64,000 bases of DNA from Octopus vulgaris (lineage: Eukaryota), in the NCBI GenBank assembly GCA_951406725.2, contig OX597829.1:41292001-41356000 (forward strand), read 5' to 3'. A program made the translations under genes and the position numbers. The number at the start of each line of letters is the position of its first letter. Position 1 is the first letter of the stretch. The notes below the pieces were generated by a model. That model did no database searches, was not told where the DNA came from, and saw only the letters and a program-made list of their open reading frames with translations. Positions 2-54,463 of this stretch are shown in pieces.

Positions 2-85
2 CTGTATATGCCACACACTCATCCCATCCTGGTCGCCGCCAAGCTGCCTCACGTGTTTCCTTCCTCGTCTGGAGGTCTTCATATG
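2..85 (-). CDS. NIPSNAP: NipSnap exon 9 (gene continues beyond the left edge)
   Basis: cttcattag|CA...ACA G|g, 84 nt; (A)[27 protein letters not shown]; only the first base of the donor is in the window. Confidence 0.95.
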
Positions 86-451
86 CTAATGAAGTTATAA
101 AAATGAAAATAATCAACAGAAGATAATTGCCGACAGTACATTCGTCACTGCATAAAAGCATGCATGGGTTATTAGGTAAGAAAACAAGGCAATGAAATAA
201 GCAAGGAATAAATAAATACAAGTCGGAAGGACAGCACAAATTAATGCATTAACAGTGAGGATTTAACAAATTAGGACAAGCCAGAAGCATGGTTATATGC
301 AGAAAATATGGTAAACAAAAATGTAGGATGAGACTTCGGTTAGAAAAGAATTTTCAGAAAAAAGCAATGCAGTGAAGAGAAGCAGTTAGTAAGAGAAAGA
401 ATATGCATGCTTGCATGTATATGGTTGTGTGTGTGTTTGCGTGTTACATAC

Positions 452-537
452 CCCACAAATGGTGCACATTGTACAGTGTCCCAAGATGGCTGAACAAGCC
501 AGCTACAGCCCCAGGTCGGTGCCGAATGCCGCGCGCC
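452..537 (-). CDS. NIPSNAP: NipSnap exon 8b (duplicated, alternative to 8a)
   Basis: atacgttcag|G...G|gtatgt, 86 nt, phase 2->1; ARGIRHRPGAVAGLFSHLGTLYNVHHLW; no stop; clearly homologous to 8a. Confidence 0.9.
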
Positions 538-856
538 CTGAACGTATATAAACGGGAAAAAGACCACATAGACAAAAAAGTGAACATTGGTGTAATAAGT
601 GCTCTTAACTGTGCTTCTTGGGCAATGAGTATATGTATGTAGATATATAAAATCTATGTGTATACAAATATATATATATATATAAATATATATATCGAAA
701 TCGATCAAAAACCAATGGAAATTGTAGTTGTGATACCAGTGCCGGTGGCACATAAAAAGATCCATCCAAACATGGCTGTTGCCAGCGCTGCCTCGACAGG
801 CCTCTGTGCCGGTGGCACGTAAAAAGCACCAATCGATCTTGGCCGTTGCCAGCCTG

Positions 857-1060
857 TAAGTTAAAGGTTGAGTAGAACAATGAGCTCAGTTCTCAGCATT
901 TTCCTGTTTATATAAGTCCTCCAAGCCTTAACAGAGGAATTTAAGACTGGCTGTCCCTGGGAGTTCCTTTATGTTGATGACCTTGTCCTTACAGCTGAAT
1001 CACTATGTGACCTCCTAGAGAAGAATTTTCAGGTGTGGAAGCAAGGCCCGGAATCTACAA
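857..1060 (+). mobile_element. Short RTE RT-core fragment
   Basis: LQALTEEFKTGCPWEFLYVDDLVLTAES, homologous to 54354-54463. Confidence 0.8.
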
Positions 1061-1558
1061 AGCATAAGTTCCTTCAGGGAGATGACACTGCTCCATATGT
1101 AAGAAGGGTGTTGGTAGGAACTCCATTTGTTGTACTCAGTGCAAGCTTTTACCTCTCTTTTATTCAAATATTTCATATTATACTTATTAAGGTACAAGTC
1201 TTGCTGACCAGCCCATTATTACTGTTTTTAACAGAAATAATGTTTCATATAGTTGCTTTTTTATTGTTTACGATAATTTTCTCTTTTAACAGAGCAGAAT
1301 GTTTAAAGTTTGAAATGTACACGAGTTGATGTAGTGAATATTTTTAAAATGAAGATTGCAAAGCATGTTTCTCATGCACAGCATGAAATCAATTGATATT
1401 GGGATATGTAAACTACCTTCAAATTCAATCCTGAAGGTAGGCCTATTTCTTGAAGTGTTCATTGCATTGCTCATGTGTGTATTTATTTATTGTAGGATTG
1501 GTGGTTTCTGAAGCTTTTGCTTTCATCTTTGGCAATCGGTATTTTTACCCTTCTTTTA

Positions 1559-1595
<37 letters not shown>

Positions 1596-1861
1596 TAGAA
1601 TTAACAAATTATTTTATACTGTATATATGTATGTTATTATGGTTATAGTTTTGATGATTGAATAAGGCGACATTATAATATCCTAAAGCTGATAAACCAA
1701 TTAATGTGTTTCTCCATTTTCTTATTTGTATTATATATATATATATACACACACACATATATCATATATATTTATATATATAAATATATATCATATATAT
1801 TTATATGTATAAATACATCATATATATTCATATGTATAAATATATCATATATATGATATAT

Positions 1862-2437
1862 ACAGCTATGGTGTGACCTCACCTGGAATTTGCATTACCC
1901 CTGTCTTGCCCAGATATTAATCGTCAGGAAACTGTTCAGTGATGGGCAACCAAGAGAATACCCTCCATCAGGCTTTTGCCATATTCTGAACACCTTACTT
2001 CCCTGGGCATGGACACATTGAAACTCCGACGTCTGGCAGCTGACTTGGCAGATACCCATAAAATTATTAACCATCATACAAACAATAACTCTGAGCACCT
2101 TTTCAAACTCCACCTCTCTAACACCCATGGACATGTTTACAAAGTCAGAAAACAGCACAGCTCCCATGATTTTCGGAAACATTTTTTCACGCTAAGAGTT
2201 ACTGAATTACGGAACAAACTGCTGGCATCAGTTGTTAGTTGTTGGAGCACTGCATCCTTCAAAACTGAGATTCGCCAACACTACACCTGATTTTCTCCAC
2301 TCCATGCACACGCAAGCATGTATCTGACTCATACACTGTTCACTTCCCAGACATTTGTACATTACTGCATATGCTTTATATGCACTTTTGACAAGTTGTG
2401 GTGCACCGGAGCACTGTATACAATAATTTCATAAAAT
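1862..2437 (+). mobile_element. CR1/L2-group LINE 3' fragment
   Basis: PYSEHLTSLGMDTLKLRRLAADL...THGHVYKV...RKHFFTLRV...NKL, a typical CR1-group C-terminus. Confidence 0.85.
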
Positions 2438-2723
2438 TATATATACATATATCATATATGCATACACATATATCATATATACATACACATATATCACATA
2501 TACATATATCACATATATATATATATATACATATATCATATATATATACACATATATCATATATATATATATACATATATCATATATATATATACACACA
2601 TAAATACATATCCACATCTATATACACATATACATATATATATGCACAAACAGATATATACATATACAGATAAATATATACACACACATATATACATATA
2701 TACATACACATATATATACACAC

Positions 2724-2766
<43 letters not shown>

Positions 2767-2917
2767 CATATATATAAACACAGACATATGTATATACACA
2801 TATATATACACACAAATATGTATATATATATATACATATATGTATATACATGTAGATATATATATATACTTATATATATATATACGTATATACATATATA
2901 TATACGTATATACATAT
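2438..2917. repeat. Compound (TA/CA) microsatellite; similar tracts at 3763-4000, 49484-49790, 61455-61540, 62288-62383 and many others
   Basis: Direct inspection; these tracts produce the YI/HT-rich spurious ORFs. Confidence 0.95.
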
Positions 2918-4449
2918 AGTGAGAATTTACAGAAAAACAAAAGACGAAGACAGCTGTGTAAACAACAAACAGATGTTTAACGCTTGGGAGGTGAGAAAGT
3001 CTTTTACTTTTCGAGCCTACACTCTTCAACAGAAAGGAAAACAGAAATATACAGGGTGAGTAAATAGAAAAAGGTATAGTGGATAGCGATCTATCATGGC
3101 AAATGCTGGACAGAGGGGTCACACAGGAGAGCTAGGAAGAAGGGGAGATAAGGTAGTGGTGATCCCAAAACGAAGGTGTGCATGCCTATGTGAGAACGTG
3201 TATGTATGTGTGGAAGGGGACTGGTGACCTTGACATGTGCATGTGTAGGTGCTTAGAAGTGGTCAGTGCTAGTGTGTGCAGGGTGGTGTGGTTGTGTTGG
3301 AGTGTGGAAGAGGTGAGAGTGGGGGAAGCAAGGGTGGGGTCTAAGGGATATATATATATTTATACATATATATACTCATATATATATATATATATAATTT
3401 ATAAATGAGGGTGAAAAAATACTTTTGGCGGGGGAATTTGAATCATAGCTACTAATGCAATTGATTGAACCGCACGTGTATTTTGGCGCTGCGTCGAAAT
3501 ATAATGAGCAATTTAATAAATTGTATTTAAGACGAACTCCTGCTGATGATTTATGGATGCTGTGTAAGTAAAATTGCATTTACATTAATAATGAAACAAT
3601 TGTTCAGAGTTAATCTATTTTTTTCTTGTTATTTTTCACTTGCACCACGGTAAATGTTGTGTTATTTCTCCTCGGAAACAATTTTTTAGTGGCTATACCA
3701 TAGTGGATCTATTTTTAGCCCTAGAGTAGACCACATAGTGGTTGCTCTCTCATATTTATGTATTATATATATATACATATATATACATACATATATATAT
3801 ACATACATATACATATATATATACATACATATACATATATATATATATACATACATATACATATATATATATATACATACATATATATATACATACATAT
3901 ACATATATATATATATACATACATATACATATATATATATATACATACATATACATATATATATATATATACATACATATGTATATATATATATATACAC
4001 ATAATACAAATAAGAAAATGGAGTAACAGATTCGTTTCAATCATGAATTGGTAATATCTGTAAGTCGATGATTGAAACGAATCTGTTCCTCCATTTTCTT
4101 ATTTTGAATTATGAATTTGAGGTAAAATATTTTACCTTTGCCCATCTAATACAATAAATGAATTAATTTCATTGCGATTATAAGCATTTATGTATTTGCC
4201 TTTTGGGTACTTCACCAGCAGTATATTGGATAACTGATATCCCATATTGGGTTACATTCATAACCCCTATCTCACTTTATACATGCTTCTTCTAGCATGT
4301 AAAAATTACCTGTTAAAGGTAGTTTTCTCTTGTGTTTGAATGTACATTATTTTATTTTGAGAATATGTCATCTATTGACTTTTTATACATGCTAGGCCAT
4401 TGGTGGTGAAATTTCTAAAAATATTCGCCACCCTATATATTTACGAATA

Positions 4450-4514
<65 letters not shown>

Positions 4515-5115
4515 AATAAAATATTAGGGAATAAATCCAAATTTATTGTAAAATATTATATAATATTAATTAGAGACAAAACCACTATTTTGTAAATCAA
4601 ACAAGGAAAGACTTAATCAATACATAAAAAAATTTTAATATAAAGTAAATAAATAAATAAATAAATAAATATTTACTTTATATTAAAATTTTTTATGTAT
4701 TGATTAAGTCTTTCCTTGTTTGATTTACAAAATAGTGGTTTTGTCTCTAATATTATATATATATATACATATATACATCTATAAATACAAGTATATATAT
4801 AGACACACGCACACACATATATATATAGTAACGAGTTATTGTCTGTGTGATTACTGTTATATTCAGTGATTAATGTACCAACTCAGGCAGTGCTTACTGA
4901 GGTATTCACTTAGATCTCTTCAATCTTCATTTCCCTTTACTAATATGGTTTTTTTTTTTACACAGACACAAACCTTCAAATTATTTTTCAAGAGAGAGGT
5001 ATTTAGTCAATTATGCCATCACCCATATTTTTAACATGAAAAAGATGGAAAAGCAAAGTTGACCCCTCAACAGGATATGAACCCAGAACTCCATGCCTTT
5101 TAGGAACAGTATACC

Positions 5116-5521
5116 TATTTCTTTACTACCCACAAGGGGCTAAACACAGAGGGGACAAACAAGGACAGACAAACGGATTAAGTCGATTATATTGACCCCA
5201 GTGCGTAACTGGTACTTATTTAATCGACCCCGAAAGGATGAAGGGCAAAGTTGACCTCAGCAGAATTTCAATCAGAACGTAGCGGCAGACAAAATACCTA
5301 ATTTCTTTATTACCCACAAGGGGCTAAACATAAAGGGGACAAACAAAGGTATTAAGTCGATTACATCGACCCCAGTGCATATCTGGTACTTAATTTATCG
5401 ACCCCGAAAGGATGAAAGGCAAAGTCGACCGTGGCAGAATTTGAACTCAGAACGTAGCGGTAGACGAAATACTGCTAAGCATTTTGCCCGGCGTGCTAAC
5501 GTTTCTGCCAGCTCGCCACCT
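5116..5521 (-). mobile_element. tRNA-derived SINE family A (Nin/Deu-domain-like), dimer
   Basis: Head GGCGAGCTGGCAGAAACGTTAG, B-box GAGTTCAAATTC, core CCTTTCATCCTTTCGGGGTCGATAAATTAAGTACC; TSD AGTATACC. Confidence 0.88.
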
Positions 5522-6743
5522 AGTATACCACTCTGACCTCAATATTTGACAGGTATTTTATTTTAGAAAGAGTAAAAGCAAAGTTGATGTCAGTATGATT
5601 TGAACCCAGAACCTAAAAGGAACTGAGTATATACTGCAAAGCATTTTGTTCAATGCTTTAATGACCCAGCAATTCCACTGCCCAATATCATTTAATATTA
5701 GCATTACATTTCTTTTTTTACCAAGAAATTACCACATTCTCATTTTTGTCTCCAAGTAAAAAGAACCACTGCAATAACATTAACACAAATGCATTATAAA
5801 CATTTTCAAAACACTCAATGATATATATACACATGCACTTATACACTCATTAATATACATGCAATATTATACAGCCCAATATAAAACAACATCAAAATTA
5901 TCACTTTCTGTAATAGTGAAGGTTAAAACATCAGTTTGTTGATATGTGTTGCTCTGCTTATAAATACTGCTTAATCCATTTTAATACCAACATCTGAGAT
6001 CAACTGCAGTTCTTTAACACAAAATTCCCCGTTTTGATGTGTTCATATTTAAATTGAAATCTTCCCTCAATAACTTTTATGCAAGAAATATTTGTTGTGT
6101 ACTTAGCCCAGCTCAATAAAGAACAAGATAAATATTTCACTAAAACCCATGCAAATTCTGGATTATTTTCAAAATTAATCGAAAGTTTATAATTAAATAT
6201 TGAATGTTGTGTTTCGTATCTAAATCAAAACCTTCAATAATTGTAATTCTTGGAGAGACAGAGCTGGTTCTTTTCAAAATTAAATAAAATACATGAAAAA
6301 AAATGGTTTATTAGAAAAATTTGATTGCAACAAAAATATTAATAAATAAACATAATAAAAAGAAGAAAAAAGGTTATCTTCAAAAAGAAAAGGAAAGAAA
6401 CAAAAAAAAAATGGTAAAAATGAGCTAAAAGACAAGAACTGATAAAATATGTTAGAAAGAAGATAATAAAAAAAAAAAATTGAGTGAAAGCAACAAAATT
6501 CTGATAATCTCCAGTGATGAATCTGTAATTGGTAGATTTTTTTTTTTTTTTCCCATTTCCAATATAAGAACTTGTAGGGTTCCAGCAGCGGTAGAAATGG
6601 GAGATAGTGAAAGAGAGAGAAGGGGAAGCAGAGTTAACTAGACCTTAAATTTATAAACCATATGAAAATAAAGGCTTCTGCAGTTTCAGGGCTTCTAACA
6701 AGGGAAATAATGTGTGTGTGTGTGTGTAAACACACATACATAC

Positions 6744-6791
<48 letters not shown>

Positions 6792-7885
6792 CATATATAA
6801 CATGTATGTATATATAAAAAATACATAATATGAAAATATATATATATATATATTATATTTTATGTATGTATAATGTGTAAGATATATATAATATGCATAA
6901 TAAAATAAAGAATGAGAAAAATAATCTGTATTATTTCAGAAACTTAATGTGTGAATTTGTGGGTATAGATTGATCTCGTTTTTGTTTCTCTGTCTCATAT
7001 TAAGAAACATTTCTTGCACATCTCCCTCACCAGCCTCTGAGTCAATGCCTTTTCCATTTTGTCTGCTGAGGCCATGAGAAATGTCTTTTTTTTTTTTTAA
7101 TAAAGGATATACAAAATGTATAAGAGGTGAGAGATAGAATTTTGAAATGAAGCAAGACGACAAGATTACATGAGGAAGATTAGAAAAAGAAAAACAAAGA
7201 GAAAATTCTTAAGCAATGCAAAAAAACATTGAAACAATGTGAAGCAAACTGCTTTTAGAATAGCACAGATCTACCTTGGCAAAAAAAAGCAACACCACAC
7301 TATGAAATATAAAAAAAAACAATCTAGCATCACCGGCAACATTATGAATATGCATTTGTATGTATATAAATAACATATATTATAAAATATACATATTATA
7401 TATATGTATGTACTAACATGTAAATATATACATATATACATTTTCATATATTATAGAACATAATGTATTTTATATAGACATATTTGTAACAAATATATAT
7501 GTATACAAAAATGTATAAGTGTATATCATATATATAAATATATATATATATGTACACATACACACACGTTATATAATATACGTGTATATCTACACACACA
7601 TATGTACTGTGTTTTTATATATAAATATGAACATTTTCCCTTAAACTTTGGTGTGTGTGCGTGTGCAACCTTCTCTTCCCATTGCTTAACATCTAGTGTT
7701 AGTTTATTTACATCCCTGTAACTTAGTGGTCCAGCAAAAGTGTACTAGGACCAATTTGTTTGACCAAAACTTTAAACGCTGTGCCTCCAGCATGGCCGCA
7801 AGTCAATGACAGGAACAAATTTTTTTGTTGATTGTTTCCAGTATTATGACATATGAATGATATCTGTTATTAAGATATTCTTTTC

Positions 7886-8296
7886 TACTCTAGGCACAAG
7901 GCCCGAAATTGTGAGGGAGGGGGGGCAGTCAATTAGATCGACCTCAGTACGCAACTGGTACTTAATTAATCGACCCTGAAAGGACGAAAGGCAAAGTCGA
8001 CCTTGGCGGAATTTGAACTCAGAACATAAAGACAGACGCAATACTGCTAAGCATTTCGCCCGGTGTGCTAACATTTCTGACAGCTCACTGCCTTAGGCAC
8101 AAGGCCCGAAATTTTGAGGGAGGGGGGGCAGTCAATTAGATCGACCCCAGTACACAACTGGTACTTAATTAATCGACCCTGAAAGGATGAAAGGCAAAGT
8201 CGACCTCAGCAGAATTTGAACTGAGAACGTAAAGACAGACTAAATACGGCTAAGCATTTTGCCCAGTGCGCTAACATTTCTGACAGCTCGCTTCCT
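7886..8296 (-). mobile_element. SINE family A variant, tandem pair
   Basis: Same head and core with an alternative tail (TTTCGGGCCTTGTGCCTA). Confidence 0.85.
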
Positions 8297-8605
8297 TAAA
8301 ATATTAAAGGATGAGTGTTTATTCCAGTTCTGATGTTTTCTTAGTTTCTTTTCCATGTTCTCGTAGTTGGTTTGTTTACATTAAATGTTTTTCAATTTTT
8401 TAGTTTTTTTTTCTTAATCCTTTCCAATATAAAAATAAATTACCATTTCCATAGAAGTAAAGAAGTAGACCGTCTTGACAACATAAGCTCTATTATTAAA
8501 ACTGGAAATAGTGTAGAGTATGGTCAGTGTTCTTCACAATTATTAAAAGGAGACAGAATGCTAAAATCATCCTTCTCTACACTTGGAACGAAGAAATATA
8601 TATAT

Positions 8606-8957
8606 ATCGCCATGATAGATCATTAGCCACTACACACATTTTTTTCTCTCCTTGTTTTTTGTGTCCCTTTCTGTAGAAGAGCGTAGGCTCGAAACGTAAA
8701 AGACTTTTTCTATTCCTGAGCGTTATACTAATACATCTGTTTGTTTTGTACACCACCTGTCTTCATCTTTTCGAAATGTAAAAGACTTTTTGTATTCCTG
8801 AGCGTTATACTAATACATTTGTTTGTTTTGTACACCACCTGTCTTCGTCTTTTCGAAACGTAAAAGACTTTTTTCTATTTCTGAGCGTTATACTAATACA
8901 TCTGTTTGTTTTGTATACCACCTGTTTTCGTCTTTTGTTTTTTTCTAAACTCTCCCT
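8606..8957 (+). repeat. Dispersed repeat (possibly a Penelope-like terminus) with an internal ~82-bp triplication; other copies at 2918-3100 (-), 38897-39077, 48408-48592
   Basis: GAAGAGCGTAGGCTCGAAACGTAAAAGACTTTT...CCTGAGCGTTATACTAATACATCTG; unit occurs three times in 8690-8935. Confidence 0.7.
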
Positions 8958-9641
8958 GTGTGTGTGTGTATGTGTATGTGTGAATGAAAACCAAACATAC
9001 TGAAACTGGTTAAGTGAAATTGTTTTAAGAACCATCTAAACCAATTGAAACTGTTCTTATGTATATATAAAAACACACACATACATGCATGTGTGTGTGT
9101 GTATATACATGTATGTATATATGATACATAAATATATACAAACACACATGCACATCCCCTAACATTCATGCATACTCACACACAAGTAGACTATCTTAAT
9201 ACTAAACAAAGCTGGAGCAGAATGCATATCAGAAAAGAAATATTAATGAAAAAATTTTTTTTTTAATTCCATCCATTTATAAAGAAGATAAAAACGGCTA
9301 TATTTATTGCAAGCAATGGAAGCCGCAATTGAAAACAGCAGCATGCAAGTAGAGATATACCCCTTTGACACAAAGAGAGTGTGTGGGGGGTGACATCTAC
9401 TTCTACACTACAAATGAGGGGGTGGAGGTAAAGCTGTAACAGTGCTAATTAATTAACTAATTAAAAGAAAGAATGCACCCGTTAGAGACATATACACACA
9501 AACATACATGGAAATGGTGCACTGTGTACAGTTAGAGGTATTTGAAAAAAAAAAAAGAAATTAAAATCTATCTCCGCCCCACACATTGCTGGTGTAGGCA
9601 AATCTGCAGTGCACAGTGCAGTCGTGCAGAGGGAAACTTAC

Positions 9642-9736
9642 CCCACAAGTGGTGAGCTGTATACAGGTGTCCGATGGACGAAAAGAAGCCTGCAACGGCT
9701 TCATTGTTGGTGCGCCGATGCTGGATACCACGAGCC
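9642..9736 (-). CDS. NIPSNAP: NipSnap exon 8a (one of two homologous exons)
   Basis: ctcctgctag|G...G|gtaagt, 95 nt, phase 2->1; [31 protein letters not shown]. Confidence 0.95.
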
Positions 9737-13658: not shown

Positions 13659-14765
13659 AAACGGGCTTCTTTCAGTTTCCATCTACCAAATTCACTCACA
13701 GGGCTTTGGTTGGCCCGAGGTTATTGTAGAATACACTTGCCCAAGGTTCCAAGCAGTGGGACTGAACCTGAAACCAGGTGGTTGGAAAGCAAGCTTTTTA
13801 GCACATAGTCACACCTGCGCCACACAAACACACACACTTGATTCTTTAGACAGTACAGAAGTTTCCTATAGGTAGTGCTGAATGTTCAGTCACAGATGAC
13901 AGCATCCCTGAAAACTCTTATTCTTCTTATTATTATCATCATTGCTATCTGTTACTTGTAAGATGGATTTGGCTATTGGCTGAGTCCATCATAGCAATCA
14001 CCCAGCTGCTCTCCTTTAATAGGACAGGGCAGGCAGTTTAGACGTCAGGAGGCAACAGCATCAAGGACTAACGACAGACACTTACCCCTTCAGTCAAACC
14101 CTCAACAGCATTTGCAAGTTGGAAAGACAAATGAAGGAGGAGAAGGAATTGCTCTCCAATGAGGTGAGTGACTGTGGTGAAAATGGTAAAAGCAGATGGA
14201 ACTAATCTAAGCATGTGCATGTAAGTTGGAGAACAACGGTTGGGAGAGGGCAGCTGCCCTTGGTGGTCAGGGTGATCTCGGATCTCTGAGGTTCTTTGAC
14301 TGGCCAGGTTCTACTCCCCACTCCTCAGTTGAGTGCTTACTGGTAGGAAAGACATCTAGCTGTAAAAAAGAATAATTACTCTAATATTAACTAATTTAAT
14401 TATGTAAAGAGTAAAAAAAAAAAAAAAATTGGATGTAAAAAAAAAAACAGTAAAAGAAAGCTACTACAAGAAAATATTTAATGTAAAAAGAAACTGACTG
14501 ATATGGTTTCAAAATTTTGGCACAAGGCCAGCAATTTTGACGGAGGTGGTAAATTGATTACATCAACCCCCCCAGTGTTCAACTAGTATTTATTTTATAG
14601 ACCCCAAAAAGATGAAAGGTTTACCGTAGAAAAATTTGAACTCAGAATGTAATGTAAAGAACCAGAAGAAATGTTATTAAACATTTCATCCAACTCACTA
14701 ATGATTCTATCAGCTTACCACCGTAAAAAAAAGGATTCTTCATATATGATTATAACACCAGTAAT

Positions 14766-15093
14766 TCTGTTGTGTGTCTGGAGAGAGTAATTTTCCTTTC
14801 GTGCCTTATTATGTAACACACTCACCGGTAAAATTTCCACTAATTTTTATTTTCCTAAAATTTTCGTTGCGTCTTGCAACCTTTTCAATAGTCTTTTCGA
14901 TGAGAGTCAAGACCATTGAAAAGGTTGCAAGACGCAACGAAAATTTTAGGAAAATGAAAATAAGTGGAAATTTTACCGGTGAGTGTGTTACATAATAAGG
15001 CACTAAAAGGGAATGACTCTCCCTAGACACAACAGAAAATGCTTCAACACACGAACTCACATAAAGAATCTTGCAAACCAAATCCAAAAACGA
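14766..15093. mobile_element. Fold-back insertion (about 130-bp inverted arms) with 12-bp TSD
   Basis: Arms ~14765-14895 and ~14909-15037; AACACCAGTAAT at 14754-14765 and 15094-15105. Confidence 0.85.
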
Positions 15094-18602: not shown

Positions 18603-18634
18603 CAATTGTTACCCCACTCAATCATGGTACCAGG
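18603..18634 (-). CDS. NIPSNAP: NipSnap exon 7
   Basis: gtctttcag|CCT...TG|gtgagt, 32 nt; encodes the highly conserved PGTMIEWGNN(W). Confidence 0.97.
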
Positions 18635-21245: not shown

Positions 21246-21389
21246 CTTCAACACATAACTACGCAACTCATAGATGTGACTGCGGTCGGGTGTTGGTGTT
21301 TCACGTGGCCAAAAGCTAAAACGTAACAAAATCTGGTTACGTCGAGAACGTAACATCTTGTTACGCTTTGATCGGAACTCCAAGAAGTC
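21246..21389 (-). CDS. NIPSNAP: NipSnap exon 6
   Basis: cctttcag|GAC...AAG|gtaagt, 144 nt; DFLEFRSKRNKMLRSRRNQILLRFSFWPRETPTPDRSHIYELRSYVLK. Confidence 0.97.
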
Positions 21390-22239: not shown

Positions 22240-22789
22240 AGATACACACACACATCATCATCATCATCGTTTAGCGTCCGCTTTCCATGCTAGCATGGGT
22301 TGGACAGTTCAACTGCGGTCTGTGAAGCCAGAAGGCTGCACCAGGTCGAGTCTGATCTGGCAGTGTTTCTACGGCTGGATGCCCTTCCTAACGCCAACCA
22401 CTCCATGTGTGTAGTGGGTGCTATTACATGCCAGACGAGGCTGGCAAATGGCCACGATCGAATGGTGCTTTTTACGTGCCACTGGCACGGAGGCCAGTCG
22501 GGGTGGCGCTGGCAATGGCTACGTTTGTGAACTTTAGTTTACTTAAAATATGCTTGTGAAATATTTCATCTGCTACAAGACAAATTCACTACACTTACCA
22601 TGGAGAAAGATTCTCTTATGGTAAAAAAGGTGTAAAAACGGCACATCTATCTAGTGTCACTCCTCAGATTCCTAGACATCAATGTTTCTAGCTCTTTAGC
22701 CATTATCCATTTGCCTCTTAGCAGTTGAAATATTTCACCTGTTTTAACTAACTCAAAGTTTACTTATGCCTACACAGTCTGGCACTGAT

Positions 22790-23387
22790 CAGTTTGTTGT
22801 ACAATTTTGCAGCAATTGACATTAGAGATATACCCCTGTAGTTGGTGACGAGGGATAAATCACCTTTTTTGGGTATTGGGATGGTTTGAGATTGGTGCCA
22901 AATCTTTTGGAACTATAAAAGTGGAAAGTGTGTGATTGCAAAGATTGAGCAGAACTACGTGAAATCTATCATCCTTCCAAATTATAGCTGTGTTGTTGTC
23001 GGGACCAAATGCTTTCGAGGCTTTCAGTTGTTTAGTCGCTGCTGTTAGTTCAAATATGGTAAAAGGGGAGGTGTTGATGTTCAGTGTATCTGATATAGGC
23101 ACACTTGGAAGAGTGGGGTTATCAGGGATTTTGGCATTCTTTCCAGGAAGGTTTTTAAAATGAGTTCACCAATTTTCTAAACACTTCTTAGCTGATCCTC
23201 CTTTGATTCTAATTGATGACCCAGAATTTTCGCGATACCAGAGGGTGCACACTCTCCTACCCTGATGTAATCTCCAGGGATACAGGCATCCAGCAACAGG
23301 ACCTCCGTAATGCTATGATGGACCGTGAAGTCTGGCGCAACATAGTAAATTCCATTGTCTCGACCATGGTCAAACAATGATGATGAT
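22790..23387. mobile_element. RTE insertion with inverted 5' segment, flanked by TSD TGGCACTGAT
   Basis: 22790-~23237 antisense RT N-terminal part (KASKAFGPD...PKKGDL...NYRGISLMSIAAKLYNKL); ~23238-23387 sense 3' end plus (GAT)n; TSD at 22780-22789 and 23388-23397. Confidence 0.88.
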
Positions 23388-23545: not shown

Positions 23546-23616
23546 CTTATCAGTACGATACTTCACTGTGGCATTGTTTAGTGCTGGGTAGCCACCATCA
23601 TATTCCCAGATGTGAA
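23546..23616 (-). CDS. NIPSNAP: NipSnap exon 5
   Basis: cttccacag|TT...AAG|gtaac, 71 nt; (I)HIWEYDGGYPALNNATVKYRTDK (H.W...GGYPAL motif). Confidence 0.96.
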
Positions 23617-50226: not shown

Positions 50227-50324
50227 CTGGCTACTATATTTTTATGTGGCTTAAACGTTTCTCTTAGGCTCAGTGTGGCAACTGGAGAACGTAGAACGGC
50301 CGAGAGCCGCGTGGTAAGATACAT
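50227..50324 (-). CDS. NIPSNAP: NipSnap exon 1 (start codon; probable mitochondrial presequence)
   Basis: GGCGCC-ATG context; encodes MYLTTRLSAVLRSPVATLSLRETFKPHKNIVA(R), rich in R/S/L/A; ends AG|gtaaga; 98 nt, phase 2 fits exon 2. Confidence 0.85.
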
Positions 50325-52822: not shown

Positions 52823-54463
52823 ATCATCATCATCATCAACATCGTTTAACGTCCACTTTCCATGCTAGCATGGGTTGGCCGATTTGACTGAGGACTGGCG
52901 AACCAGATGGCTGCGCCATGTTCCAATCTAATATGGCAGAGTTTCTACAGCTGGATGCCCTTCCTAACGCCAACCACTCCGAGAGTGTAGTGGGTGCTTT
53001 TATGTGCCACCGGCACGAGGGTCAGTCTGGCGGTACTGGCAACGGCTACGCTCGAAAATGGTGCTTTTTACGCGCCACCTGCACAGGTGTCAGTCCAGCA
53101 GCACTAGCAACGACCTCGCTCGAATGTTTTGTTCACGTGCCAGTGAGGTGATGCTGACAACAATCACGCTCAAATGGTGCTCTTTACGTGCCAGACAGCT
53201 GCACTGGCAGTGATCCCGCTTGGATGGAGCTGTTAGCGCTCCACTGGCATGGGTGTCAGTCATCGAATTTGGTTTAGTTTCGATTTCACCTGCCCCAACA
53301 GGTCTTCGCAAGCAGAGTTTAGTGTCCAATGAAGGGAGGTTGGCATGGGTGCCAGTTGACGAATTTGGTTCAATTTCGATTTCACTTGCCTCAACAGGTC
53401 TTCACAAGCAGAGTTTTGTATCCAAAAAAGGAAAGGTATGCATATGTGGGCTGGGTACATCCTGGTAAAGGCCATGGGTTATGGTCTCACTTGTCCTGCT
53501 GGGTCTTCTCACGCACAGCATACTTCCAAAGGTCTTGGTCGCTAGTCATTGCTTTGGTGAGACCCAATGTTCAAAGATCATGCTTCACCACCTCATCCCA
53601 GGTTTTCCTGGGTTTACCTCTTCCACAGGTTCCCTCAACTGCTAGGGTGTTCACTTTTTCACACAACTATCTTCATCCATTCTCGCCACGTGACCATACC
53701 AGCGTAGTCATCTCTCTTGCACACCACATCTGATGCTTCTTAGGTCCAACTTTTCTCTCAAGGTACTTACACTTTGTCAAGTATGTACACTGACATTACA
53801 CATCCATTGGAACATACTGGCTTCATTCCTTGCAAGCTTACGCATGTCTTCAGCAGTCATGGCCCATGTTTCACTGCCATGTAGCATGGCTGTTCGTACA
53901 CATGCGTCATACAGTCTGCCTTTTACTCTGAGCGAGAGGCCCTTTGTCACCAGCAGAGGTAAGAGCTCTCTGAACTTTGCCCAGGCTATTCTTATTCTAG
54001 CAGTTACACTTTCAGCACACCCGCCCCCACTACTGACTTGGTCACCTAAGTAATGGAAGCTGACAACTACTTCTAGTTTTTCTCCCTGGAATGTGGCGGA
54101 AGTTGTTCTCTGCACATTTTCAATGTTTATTGCATACAAAAACTATCTTCCTAGTTAGTCTTCCTTTGATATTGCTGCACCTCTTGTGTGCCCATAGCTT
54201 ACACTGGGTACATCTTATAGAGTTTCTACCTATGCCTTTTCTACAGATCGAGTAGGGCCATCTACCTGAAGGCGTTTGTGGTTTGTCTACCTTCCTACTT
54301 ATGACTTTGGTTTTACCTAAGTTGACTCTAAGGCCCTTCGATTCAAATCCTTGCTACCACACCTGAAACTTTCCCTCTAGTTCTGATAGTGACTCAGCAA
54401 TTAGAGCAAGGTCATCAGCATAGAGGGGCTCCCAGGGACATCCTGTCCTGAATTCCTCCATTG
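52823..54463 (-). mobile_element. 5'-truncated RTE-clade LINE (RT C-terminal part with PHD-like insert, 3' UTR, (GAT)n tail); decayed
   Basis: EEFRTGCPWEPLYADDLALIAES...KGLRVNLGKTKV...FHYLGD...RIRIAWAKFRELLPLL...LHGSETW; contains stops and frameshifts. Confidence 0.92.

Follow-up and report, generated by a model that had tools for sequence, protein, structure and literature searches.

Tandem-duplicated, mutually exclusive homologous exons, as described in the accessible parts of three surveys (PMC9741552, PMC8373072, PMC5740500), are adjacent, equal in phase, old and conserved; one is used per mRNA, and their lengths are often not divisible by three, in which case inclusion of both breaks the frame. 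Convergent origin of such exons in orthologous genes is documented in the same texts. By function, the closest parallel is coq-2: in helminths, annelids and molluscs its alternative exons control a switch in quinone synthesis, according to the available portion of PMC7434440. Here we describe a pair of exons in the NipSnap gene of Octopus vulgaris, found in a 64,000-nucleotide (nt) stretch of contig OX597829.1 (positions 41,292,001 to 41,356,000; hereafter the window). We consider it probable that this gene carries two intact tandem copies of exon 8 which are likely to be mutually exclusive, that 8a is the common form and 8b a minor or tissue-restricted one, that wrong choices would be removed by nonsense-mediated decay (NMD), and that the swap would alter a hairpin in domain 2 of the protein.

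The locus compares closely with the described class. Exons 8a and 8b are adjacent, homologous, equal in phase and bounded by canonical splice sites, and both are conserved across species (octopuses, gastropods and bivalves). Like NipSnap, coq-2 is a mitochondrial metabolism gene, and its exons 6a and 6e are mutually exclusive and present in molluscs and annelids; whether the origin was single or repeated is undecided in both. In coq-2 the exon choice decides between ubiquinone and rhodoquinone, an output that has been tested, in the excerpt seen of PMC7434440, whereas the NipSnap pair is not known to be tied to any activity or condition. Unlike the coq-2 pattern, the NipSnap pair also occurs in crinoids and was not seen in L070, a contig likely to be of venerid bivalve type. 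Finally, the surveys cited above, in the parts accessible to us, deal chiefly with human, fly and nematode and with ion channels, whereas NipSnap is a soluble mitochondrial protein with two to five exon-8 copies in molluscs, crinoids and annelid-like animals, and it adds such a protein to a list of convergent exon duplications that is otherwise dominated by ion channels. The mode of splicing is itself ordinary; the interest lies in the repeated multiplication of one exon, in several phyla, beside a conserved histidine.

The window carries most of the NipSnap gene on the minus strand, and its exons match the annotated Octopus vulgaris protein P0013. The last exon lies just outside, in L003 from 4702 downward. 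The features of the gene are as follows.

50227..50324, minus strand: exon 1, coding part (MYLTTRLSAV...), its start placed by computation from the frame; agrees with the N-terminus of P0002
37128..37282, minus strand: exon 2
34691..34736, minus strand: exon 3
31735..31826, minus strand: exon 4, end of a helix and a strand in domain 1, the counterpart of most of exon 8; single in octopus
23546..23616, minus strand: exon 5
21246..21389, minus strand: exon 6
18603..18634, minus strand: exon 7, the common upstream exon (PGTMIEWGNN)
9642..9736, minus strand: exon 8a, 95 nt, phase 2 to 1, TAG/GTAAGT, residues 214-244 of the 293-residue isoform
452..537, minus strand: exon 8b, 86 nt, phase 2 to 1, CAG/GTATGT, residues 214-241 of the 290-residue isoform
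86..451, minus strand: intron 8b-9, 366 nt
2..85, minus strand: exon 9, the common downstream exon; exon 10 is outside the window, in L003

A first-pass annotation of the window, made by a model from the letters alone, had proposed two homologous, stop-free exons with AG/GT borders and phase 2 to 1 at 9642-9736 and 452-537, and both are indeed intact there. The peptide of exon 8b, by translation, is ARGIRHRPGAVAGLFSHLGTLYNVHHLW. The two exons share 19 of 28 aligned residues, 14 of these 19 being encoded by a different codon; nucleotide identity is 50/84, the proportion of nonsynonymous differences (pN) is 0.25 and that of synonymous differences (pS) is 0.86, which is saturated. These values agree with the proposal of an old duplication with many synonymous differences. 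The contrast between FSSIG and FSHLG and the three-residue indel were likewise recovered, with Ser in 8a, His in 8b, and 8b shorter by three residues. Across the 2.8-Gb genome the 8a peptide matches only 8a and 8b, and there is therefore no detected second locus able to explain 8b. A lenient tblastn search of the octopus gene found no further copies of exon 8 or of exon 9.

The reading frame constrains how these exons may be used. Transcripts joined as 7-8a-9 and as 7-8b-9 both stay open to ...PTPFSPLQ*. Double inclusion (7-8a-8b-9) ends in HLWGRAAFGTDLGL*, with the stop 135 nt upstream of the last junction, and skipping (7-9) ends in WGNNCI*, with the stop 77 nt upstream of it, so that the frame computation upholds the earlier statement that only single inclusion gives protein. 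Premature stops more than 50-55 nt upstream of the last junction are subject to NMD. Because both stops exceed this distance, the double-inclusion and the skipped mRNAs would likely be removed. The lengths of 95 and 86 nt are both indivisible by three, as expected where NMD enforces exclusivity; in human, 377 of 629 clusters of mutually exclusive exons have such lengths, in the portion seen of PMC5740500. We propose that splicing includes in each mRNA either 8a, as the common form, or 8b, which is likely minor or tissue-restricted; that a choice of both or neither would shift the frame and expose the mRNA to NMD; and that the swap is predicted to change the domain 2 beta-hairpin adjoining an invariant histidine. 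The pair is probably mutually exclusive.

Steric interference, which operates when a donor lies less than about 50 nt from a branch point, was considered as a source of exclusivity and does not fit, because the intron between 8a and 8b, with canonical GT-AG ends, measures 9,104 nt (branch points are unmapped). The objection that a 9.1-kb spacing rules against steric exclusion, raised at first pass, is thereby sustained.

Evidence that both exons are used comes from related octopuses. In RefSeq, isoform X1 contains 8a and X2 contains 8b in Octopus bimaculoides (XP_014779773.1, XP_014779774.1) and in O. sinensis (XP_029648532.2, XP_036367604.1). These models carry the same 8a/8b peptides as the window (for 8b, 28/28 residues are identical to X2 in O. 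sinensis and 27/28 in O. bimaculoides) and, as automatic annotation, are silent on exclusivity, conservation, tissue and function. Exon 8a is also contained in the annotated proteins P0013, P0016 and P0001. In this species splicing was examined in 4 of the 24 listed sequencing runs (four studies) as assembled contigs, with the RNA nature guessed and the tissue not recorded. These runs had been ranked by a mostly intronic query and their contigs drop rare variants; the comparison used 861 nt around exon 9 and 8b, without exons 7 and 8a, and covers the matches listed. A spliced contig joining exon 10, exon 9 and 8a was found in all four runs at a depth of 494-1835, its loose end being matched to 8a at 9643-9672. 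Among the matches listed for this 861-nt stretch, no join containing both or neither of the exon-8 copies was seen in the four runs. Exon 8a is the dominant form in the samples examined. Since 8a is the only copy seen spliced among the matches listed in 4/4 runs, the use of 8b is deduced from the relatives; on that basis it is very probable that 8b is spliced in this species, where it is probably minor or tissue-restricted. The notion of two single-inclusion isoforms thus stands in so far as both are annotated in two related octopuses, and in the four runs it is borne out for 8a alone; similarly, the suggested mapping of junctions yielded 8a-9 in 4/4 runs and no 8b-9 among the matches listed. 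As a separate observation, window positions 86-660 show, in four RNA-like runs, low-depth unbroken cover of the 8b-9 intron, 8b and the intron upstream of it, which may represent a retained intron, pre-mRNA or DNA.

Several points weigh against our explanation. Neither an 8b-9 joint nor a loose end at either boundary of 8b was present among the matches listed in the four runs, where 8b is covered just by one unbroken contig that spans both flanking introns at a depth of 9-25. The annotation found for O. vulgaris itself (P0013) holds only 8a, and so do the single Argonauta member and a six-member cephalopod transcript cluster. Furthermore, although the structure of the exons, the outcome of each joining, the splicing of 8a in the four runs, the annotated isoforms of relatives and the multiplication of the exon in other phyla are shown, NMD is deduced from stop positions and side-chain orientation from strand alternation. 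A rival reading is that 8b was formerly used and is now almost silent in this species, so that the gene in practice makes the 8a protein. The uniform 8a splicing in the four runs and the 8a-only records just listed favor it, as does the single copy in L070, from which it follows that copy loss likely happens. However, X2 is annotated in two other octopuses with nearly every 8b residue preserved, the splice sites and frame of 8b are intact, and the runs are of unrecorded tissue, ranked by mostly intronic words and poor in rare variants; we judge a silent 8b to be quite improbable. For the still more skeptical idea that 8b is an assembly artefact or a stray paralogue fragment we found no supporting point. 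There are only two genome matches, 8b is just 50/84 identical to 8a in nucleotides with flanks that are unrelated apart from one 21-nt stretch, independent contigs in four runs span 8b, its introns and exon 9, and 8b is annotated in related species; the last two facts refute this idea, to which we assign practically no probability.

Granted two working exons, how is one of them chosen? Exon choice is likely set by splicing factors, and we lean toward the conclusion that NMD together with factor-driven choice, and not RNA pairing, keeps the exons exclusive. Two kinds of element bear on this question.

Intron 8b-9, minus strand: TACTAAC at +61 and TGCATG at +288, single occurrences and weak evidence
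9512..9532, minus strand: 21-nt intronic element, +110..+130 past the 8a donor, a same-orientation match to 457-477 within the 3' part of 8b, with 19/21 positions identical (blastn E 8.6e-4)

We take TACTAAC and TGCATG to be candidate QKI/STAR and Rbfox sites. With respect to the 21-nt element, competing RNA pairing could enforce exclusivity if this element and its twin within 8b were selectors for one docking site. In keeping with this, the two 21-mers are 19/21 identical even at third codon positions, whereas silent sites between 8a and 8b have reached saturation, and a pattern built from both sites has no other occurrence in the genome. Similar selectors that share a single docking site are a known design in the part of PMC6071210 available, and the title of Yue et al. 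(2017, cited in PMC7434440 and known to us from that citation) ties the mrp-1/MRP1 exon cluster to competing RNA structures. In NipSnap, by contrast, no docking site was found: duplex scans between exons 7 and 9 gave no outstanding partner shared by the two 21-mers. The best nearby partner, just past the 8a donor, ranks 4/370 for the intronic element and 17/364 for 8b, and the top partners differ. The local fold around the element is not unusual (z = -0.05), an inverted-repeat search was swamped by TA repeats (4,376 pairs), and a search for intronic elements conserved between octopus and two annelid-like loci with multiple copies (L075 and L077, see below) returned none beyond exon-like and simple-repeat matches and one 13-mer. 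The element instead reads LYTVHHF followed by GTATGT. Because this fits the end of an exon, a relic is likelier than a selector, and the element is likely, judging by its letters, what remains of a third exon-8 copy. Locus L075 carries a comparable remnant, there of the 3' end of exon 9. Pairing as the enforcing mechanism is therefore unlikely in our estimate. Other options for the element at 9512-9532 are a decoy donor or a selector.

The suggestion that the pair should be sought in other cephalopods and molluscs was fruitful, in that two forms were found in octopuses, gastropods, bivalves and one chiton. Two exon-8 forms are held by 7 of 30 protein clusters (Octopus, Haliotis, Sinanodonta, Liolophura, crinoids, Mytilus and Aplysia), and Argopecten X1/X2 likewise represent two exon-8 forms. 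The two exons are fused in frame, via extra residues, in the gene models for Nucella, Batillaria and Elysia crispata, and exon order is therefore known for those species: the Gln type precedes the His type in Nucella and Batillaria, as the Ser type precedes the His type in octopus. Transcript-sized contigs from further molluscs (P0009, P0051, P0098) likewise contain His-type exons. As a rule, F[ST]H[LI]G[EQ]Q is found in the second exon and F[ST]Q[IM]G in the first. For eight gastropod and bivalve species, the score for pairing like exons minus that for crossed pairing is positive in 27 of 28 species pairs (the remaining one is 0). Because like-with-like pairing outscores crossed pairing so consistently, the sequences support a single old duplication shared by gastropods and bivalves. 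The equivalent octopus score is positive in 7/8 comparisons, weaker than among gastropods and bivalves.

It appears moderately probable that the octopus pair shares this duplication. Against this stand several observations. The contrast of Gln with His is not absolute, since His stands in the other exon of Physella, and the second type carries Gln in Elysia and Biomphalaria; the type 1/2 labels of five of the eight pairs were set from the His motif, which makes the score test partly circular; and the octopus scores with the three order-labelled models are +7, +20 and -4. Tree tests reject neither one conchiferan origin (p of the approximately unbiased test, p-AU, 0.45) nor an octopus-only duplication (p-AU 0.30), and a larger exon tree places octopus 8b on a long branch beside crinoid copies; the exon trees, which span 31 and 26 columns, resolve little. 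These results leave some room for a rival that concerns history only, in which the octopus pair arose by a separate duplication in cephalopods, reached His by convergence and is not orthologous to the gastropod-bivalve pair. Besides the p-AU of 0.30 for grouping 8a with 8b, this rival can appeal to the absence from octopus 8b of the G[EQ]Q motif found in the second exons of gastropods and bivalves, to the presence of His at the switching site in Bugula, Lineus and annelid-like sequences, and to the readiness with which exon 8 duplicates. It is opposed by the exon order of octopus, which equals that of Nucella and Batillaria, and by the higher score of 8b with the second exon than with the first in 8/8 gastropod and bivalve species; the same preference is seen with the chiton and crinoid pairs. 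A separate cephalopod origin seems somewhat unlikely.

Exon 8 has also been multiplied outside this group. In the chiton Liolophura and the crinoids Antedon and Anneissia there are pairs of isoforms that differ only in the exon-8 segment. Since these pairs give low scores, some positive and some negative, when compared with the conchiferan ones, they likely arose by duplications of their own, and the annelid-like copies described next are likely separate as well. A scan of 80 metagenome loci, many of which are transcripts or short contigs, identified several exon-8 copies in 2, one in 70 and, as judged by motif, none in 8; no mollusc contig with both exons was found among these 80. Locus L075 (3675-5411) contains four intact copies of 95, 89, 89 and 89 nt, and L077 (10964-15661) contains four intact copies of 95, 95, 95 and 89 nt and, in addition, a fifth copy of about 113 nt. 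Each array, as read in these genomic contigs, is flanked by one exon 7 on one side and one exon 9 on the other, every copy has AG/GT ends and a length of 2 modulo 3, and the final copy in both reads FVDLG. The hosts are likely annelid, to judge from encoded proteins that resemble a Capitella sequence. Three other genomic contigs that span the interval from exon 7 to exon 9 (L070, L078 and L083) have one copy each. One form only was found in clusters of sea urchins, sea stars, cnidarians, Bugula, Mercenaria, Callorhinchus, a spider and flies (15 of 63 members listed). The nemertean Tubulanus (P0075/P0148) alternates exon 4, the domain 1 counterpart of exon 8, with Ser changing to Asp at the aligned switching position. 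By these comparisons exon 8 is a duplication hotspot.

Some further alternatives were noted in the same proteins and loci. Lineus (P0149/P0142) alternates its last exon. Capitella-type P0010 and P0030/P0031 represent two versions of exon 9 with 9 differences, possibly another case of mutual exclusion; P0010 and P0031 come from records in the transcriptome of a different organism, which may reflect contamination by a host. At about 6850-6900 of L075, some 200 nt past exon 9, about 31 nt resemble the 3' end of exon 9 with its donor and may be a decayed exon-9 duplicate. In Branchiostoma (P0138, P0287, P0288, P0291), an optional insert of 26 residues precedes exon 8, is present in several species and begins AKA[VI]P.RRG, like the start of exon 8.

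What does the swap do to the protein? AlphaFold2 models of both isoforms have a mean predicted local distance difference test (pLDDT) score of 80.6 and 81.3, with 85-95 over exon 8. In the models, the segment encoded by exon 8a takes in the tail of helix 206-223 and, in the beta-hairpin that follows in domain 2, strand 226-234 and the greater part of strand 239-246; in the 8b model the helix ends at 219, the three-residue deletion shortening it by about one turn. The expectation that the isoforms differ in the second NIPSNAP domain is therefore matched by both models. The fold is tandem ferredoxin-like (a dimeric alpha-beta barrel), and matching proteins carry PF07978, which places the protein in the NIPSNAP family. 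Domain 2 matches the bacterial structures 1VQS, 2AP6, 1VQY, 5KAK, 5K9F and 5IXU by sequence (E 1.9e-11 to 1.3e-4) and by fold (Z about 10, root-mean-square deviation 1.7-2.8 A over 101-109 residues). These bacterial proteins are single-domain and of unknown function, whereas octopus NipSnap has two domains, and no animal NipSnap structure was matched in the sequence search of structures. The fold is common to bacterial NIPSNAP proteins, putative monooxygenases and sulfur oxygenase reductase, and sharing it shows no function.

Within the hairpin, G229, G235 and H242 are invariant in 60/60 aligned sequences, and F231 and W244 are nearly so. Over 206 distinct segments, the residue at position 233 is most often Q (169), followed by H (30), E (3), S (2), N (1) and L (1); it is Ser233 in 8a, His230 in 8b, and Glu or Asp in the two bacterial chains shown aligned. 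Strand alternation suggests that residues 233, 231, 242 and 244 are on one face of the sheet. We slightly favor the idea that residue 233/230 shares this face with His242 and Trp244 and tunes the binding of a ligand or partner. Because the segment of some 30 residues has been repeatedly duplicated and kept in several phyla, function is likely tuned there, and exon 8 is likely a repeatedly exploited tuning site of NipSnap. A bolder proposal is that exon 8 acts as a specificity cassette that animals have duplicated on four or more occasions, with the residue beside the histidine varied each time (Gln, His, Ser, Asp), and that the isoforms are switched by tissue or oxygen in the manner of coq-2 to alter the mitochondrial binding of NipSnap. 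The duplications counted here are those of conchiferan molluscs, the chiton, crinoids and the annelid-like hosts (4-5 copies), the nemertean having done the equivalent with the domain 1 exon. This proposal is speculative and rather unlikely as a whole; if it were true, the isoforms would be natural variants pointing to the ligand site of the family, human NIPSNAP1/2 included. In any event, paired isoforms that differ in 9-15 residues may be used for comparisons of binding or complementation. NIPSNAP1/2 are mitochondrial and tied to mitophagy and lipid oxidation, their precise mechanism being called unknown in the part seen of 10.1101/2024.12.29.630678.

With respect to the literature, no paper describing alternative NipSnap exons was found in a search that judged papers mostly by title and the start of the abstract and covered subscription journals thinly. 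The word "nipsnap" is absent from the main text of PMC7434440, PMC9699675, PMC8373072 and PMC9741552 (the supplements of the last two were outside the search) and from three supplements of PMC9699675, whose file 2, possibly listing these isoforms, was also outside it. PMC11387482, in the part available, deals with the pockets of NIPSNAP3A/3B only. The first-pass remark that no prior description was known thus agrees with the papers searched and fails for automatic annotation, in which the pair is present as RefSeq and gastropod or bivalve isoforms or as joined models. The exon pair is accordingly real and conserved, and apparently undescribed in the literature though automatically annotated.

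Finally, the introns contain several repeats. In the 8a-8b intron there are tandem repeats at 7891-8298 (203 nt x2) and 8689-8936 (82 nt x3), and the 82-nt unit is among the best duplex scores against 8b. Intron 7-8a contains, at 14764-15040, an inverted repeat with 132-nt arms that are 89% identical and 13 nt apart, a possible stable hairpin or editing substrate. Right after exon 9, L003:8800-8985 is a very highly covered repeat with a summed contig depth of up to about 65,000 and CCCTAA-like loose ends. Reading frames in large introns at about 53800-54045 and at 22764-22912 (minus strand) resemble retrotransposon fragments.

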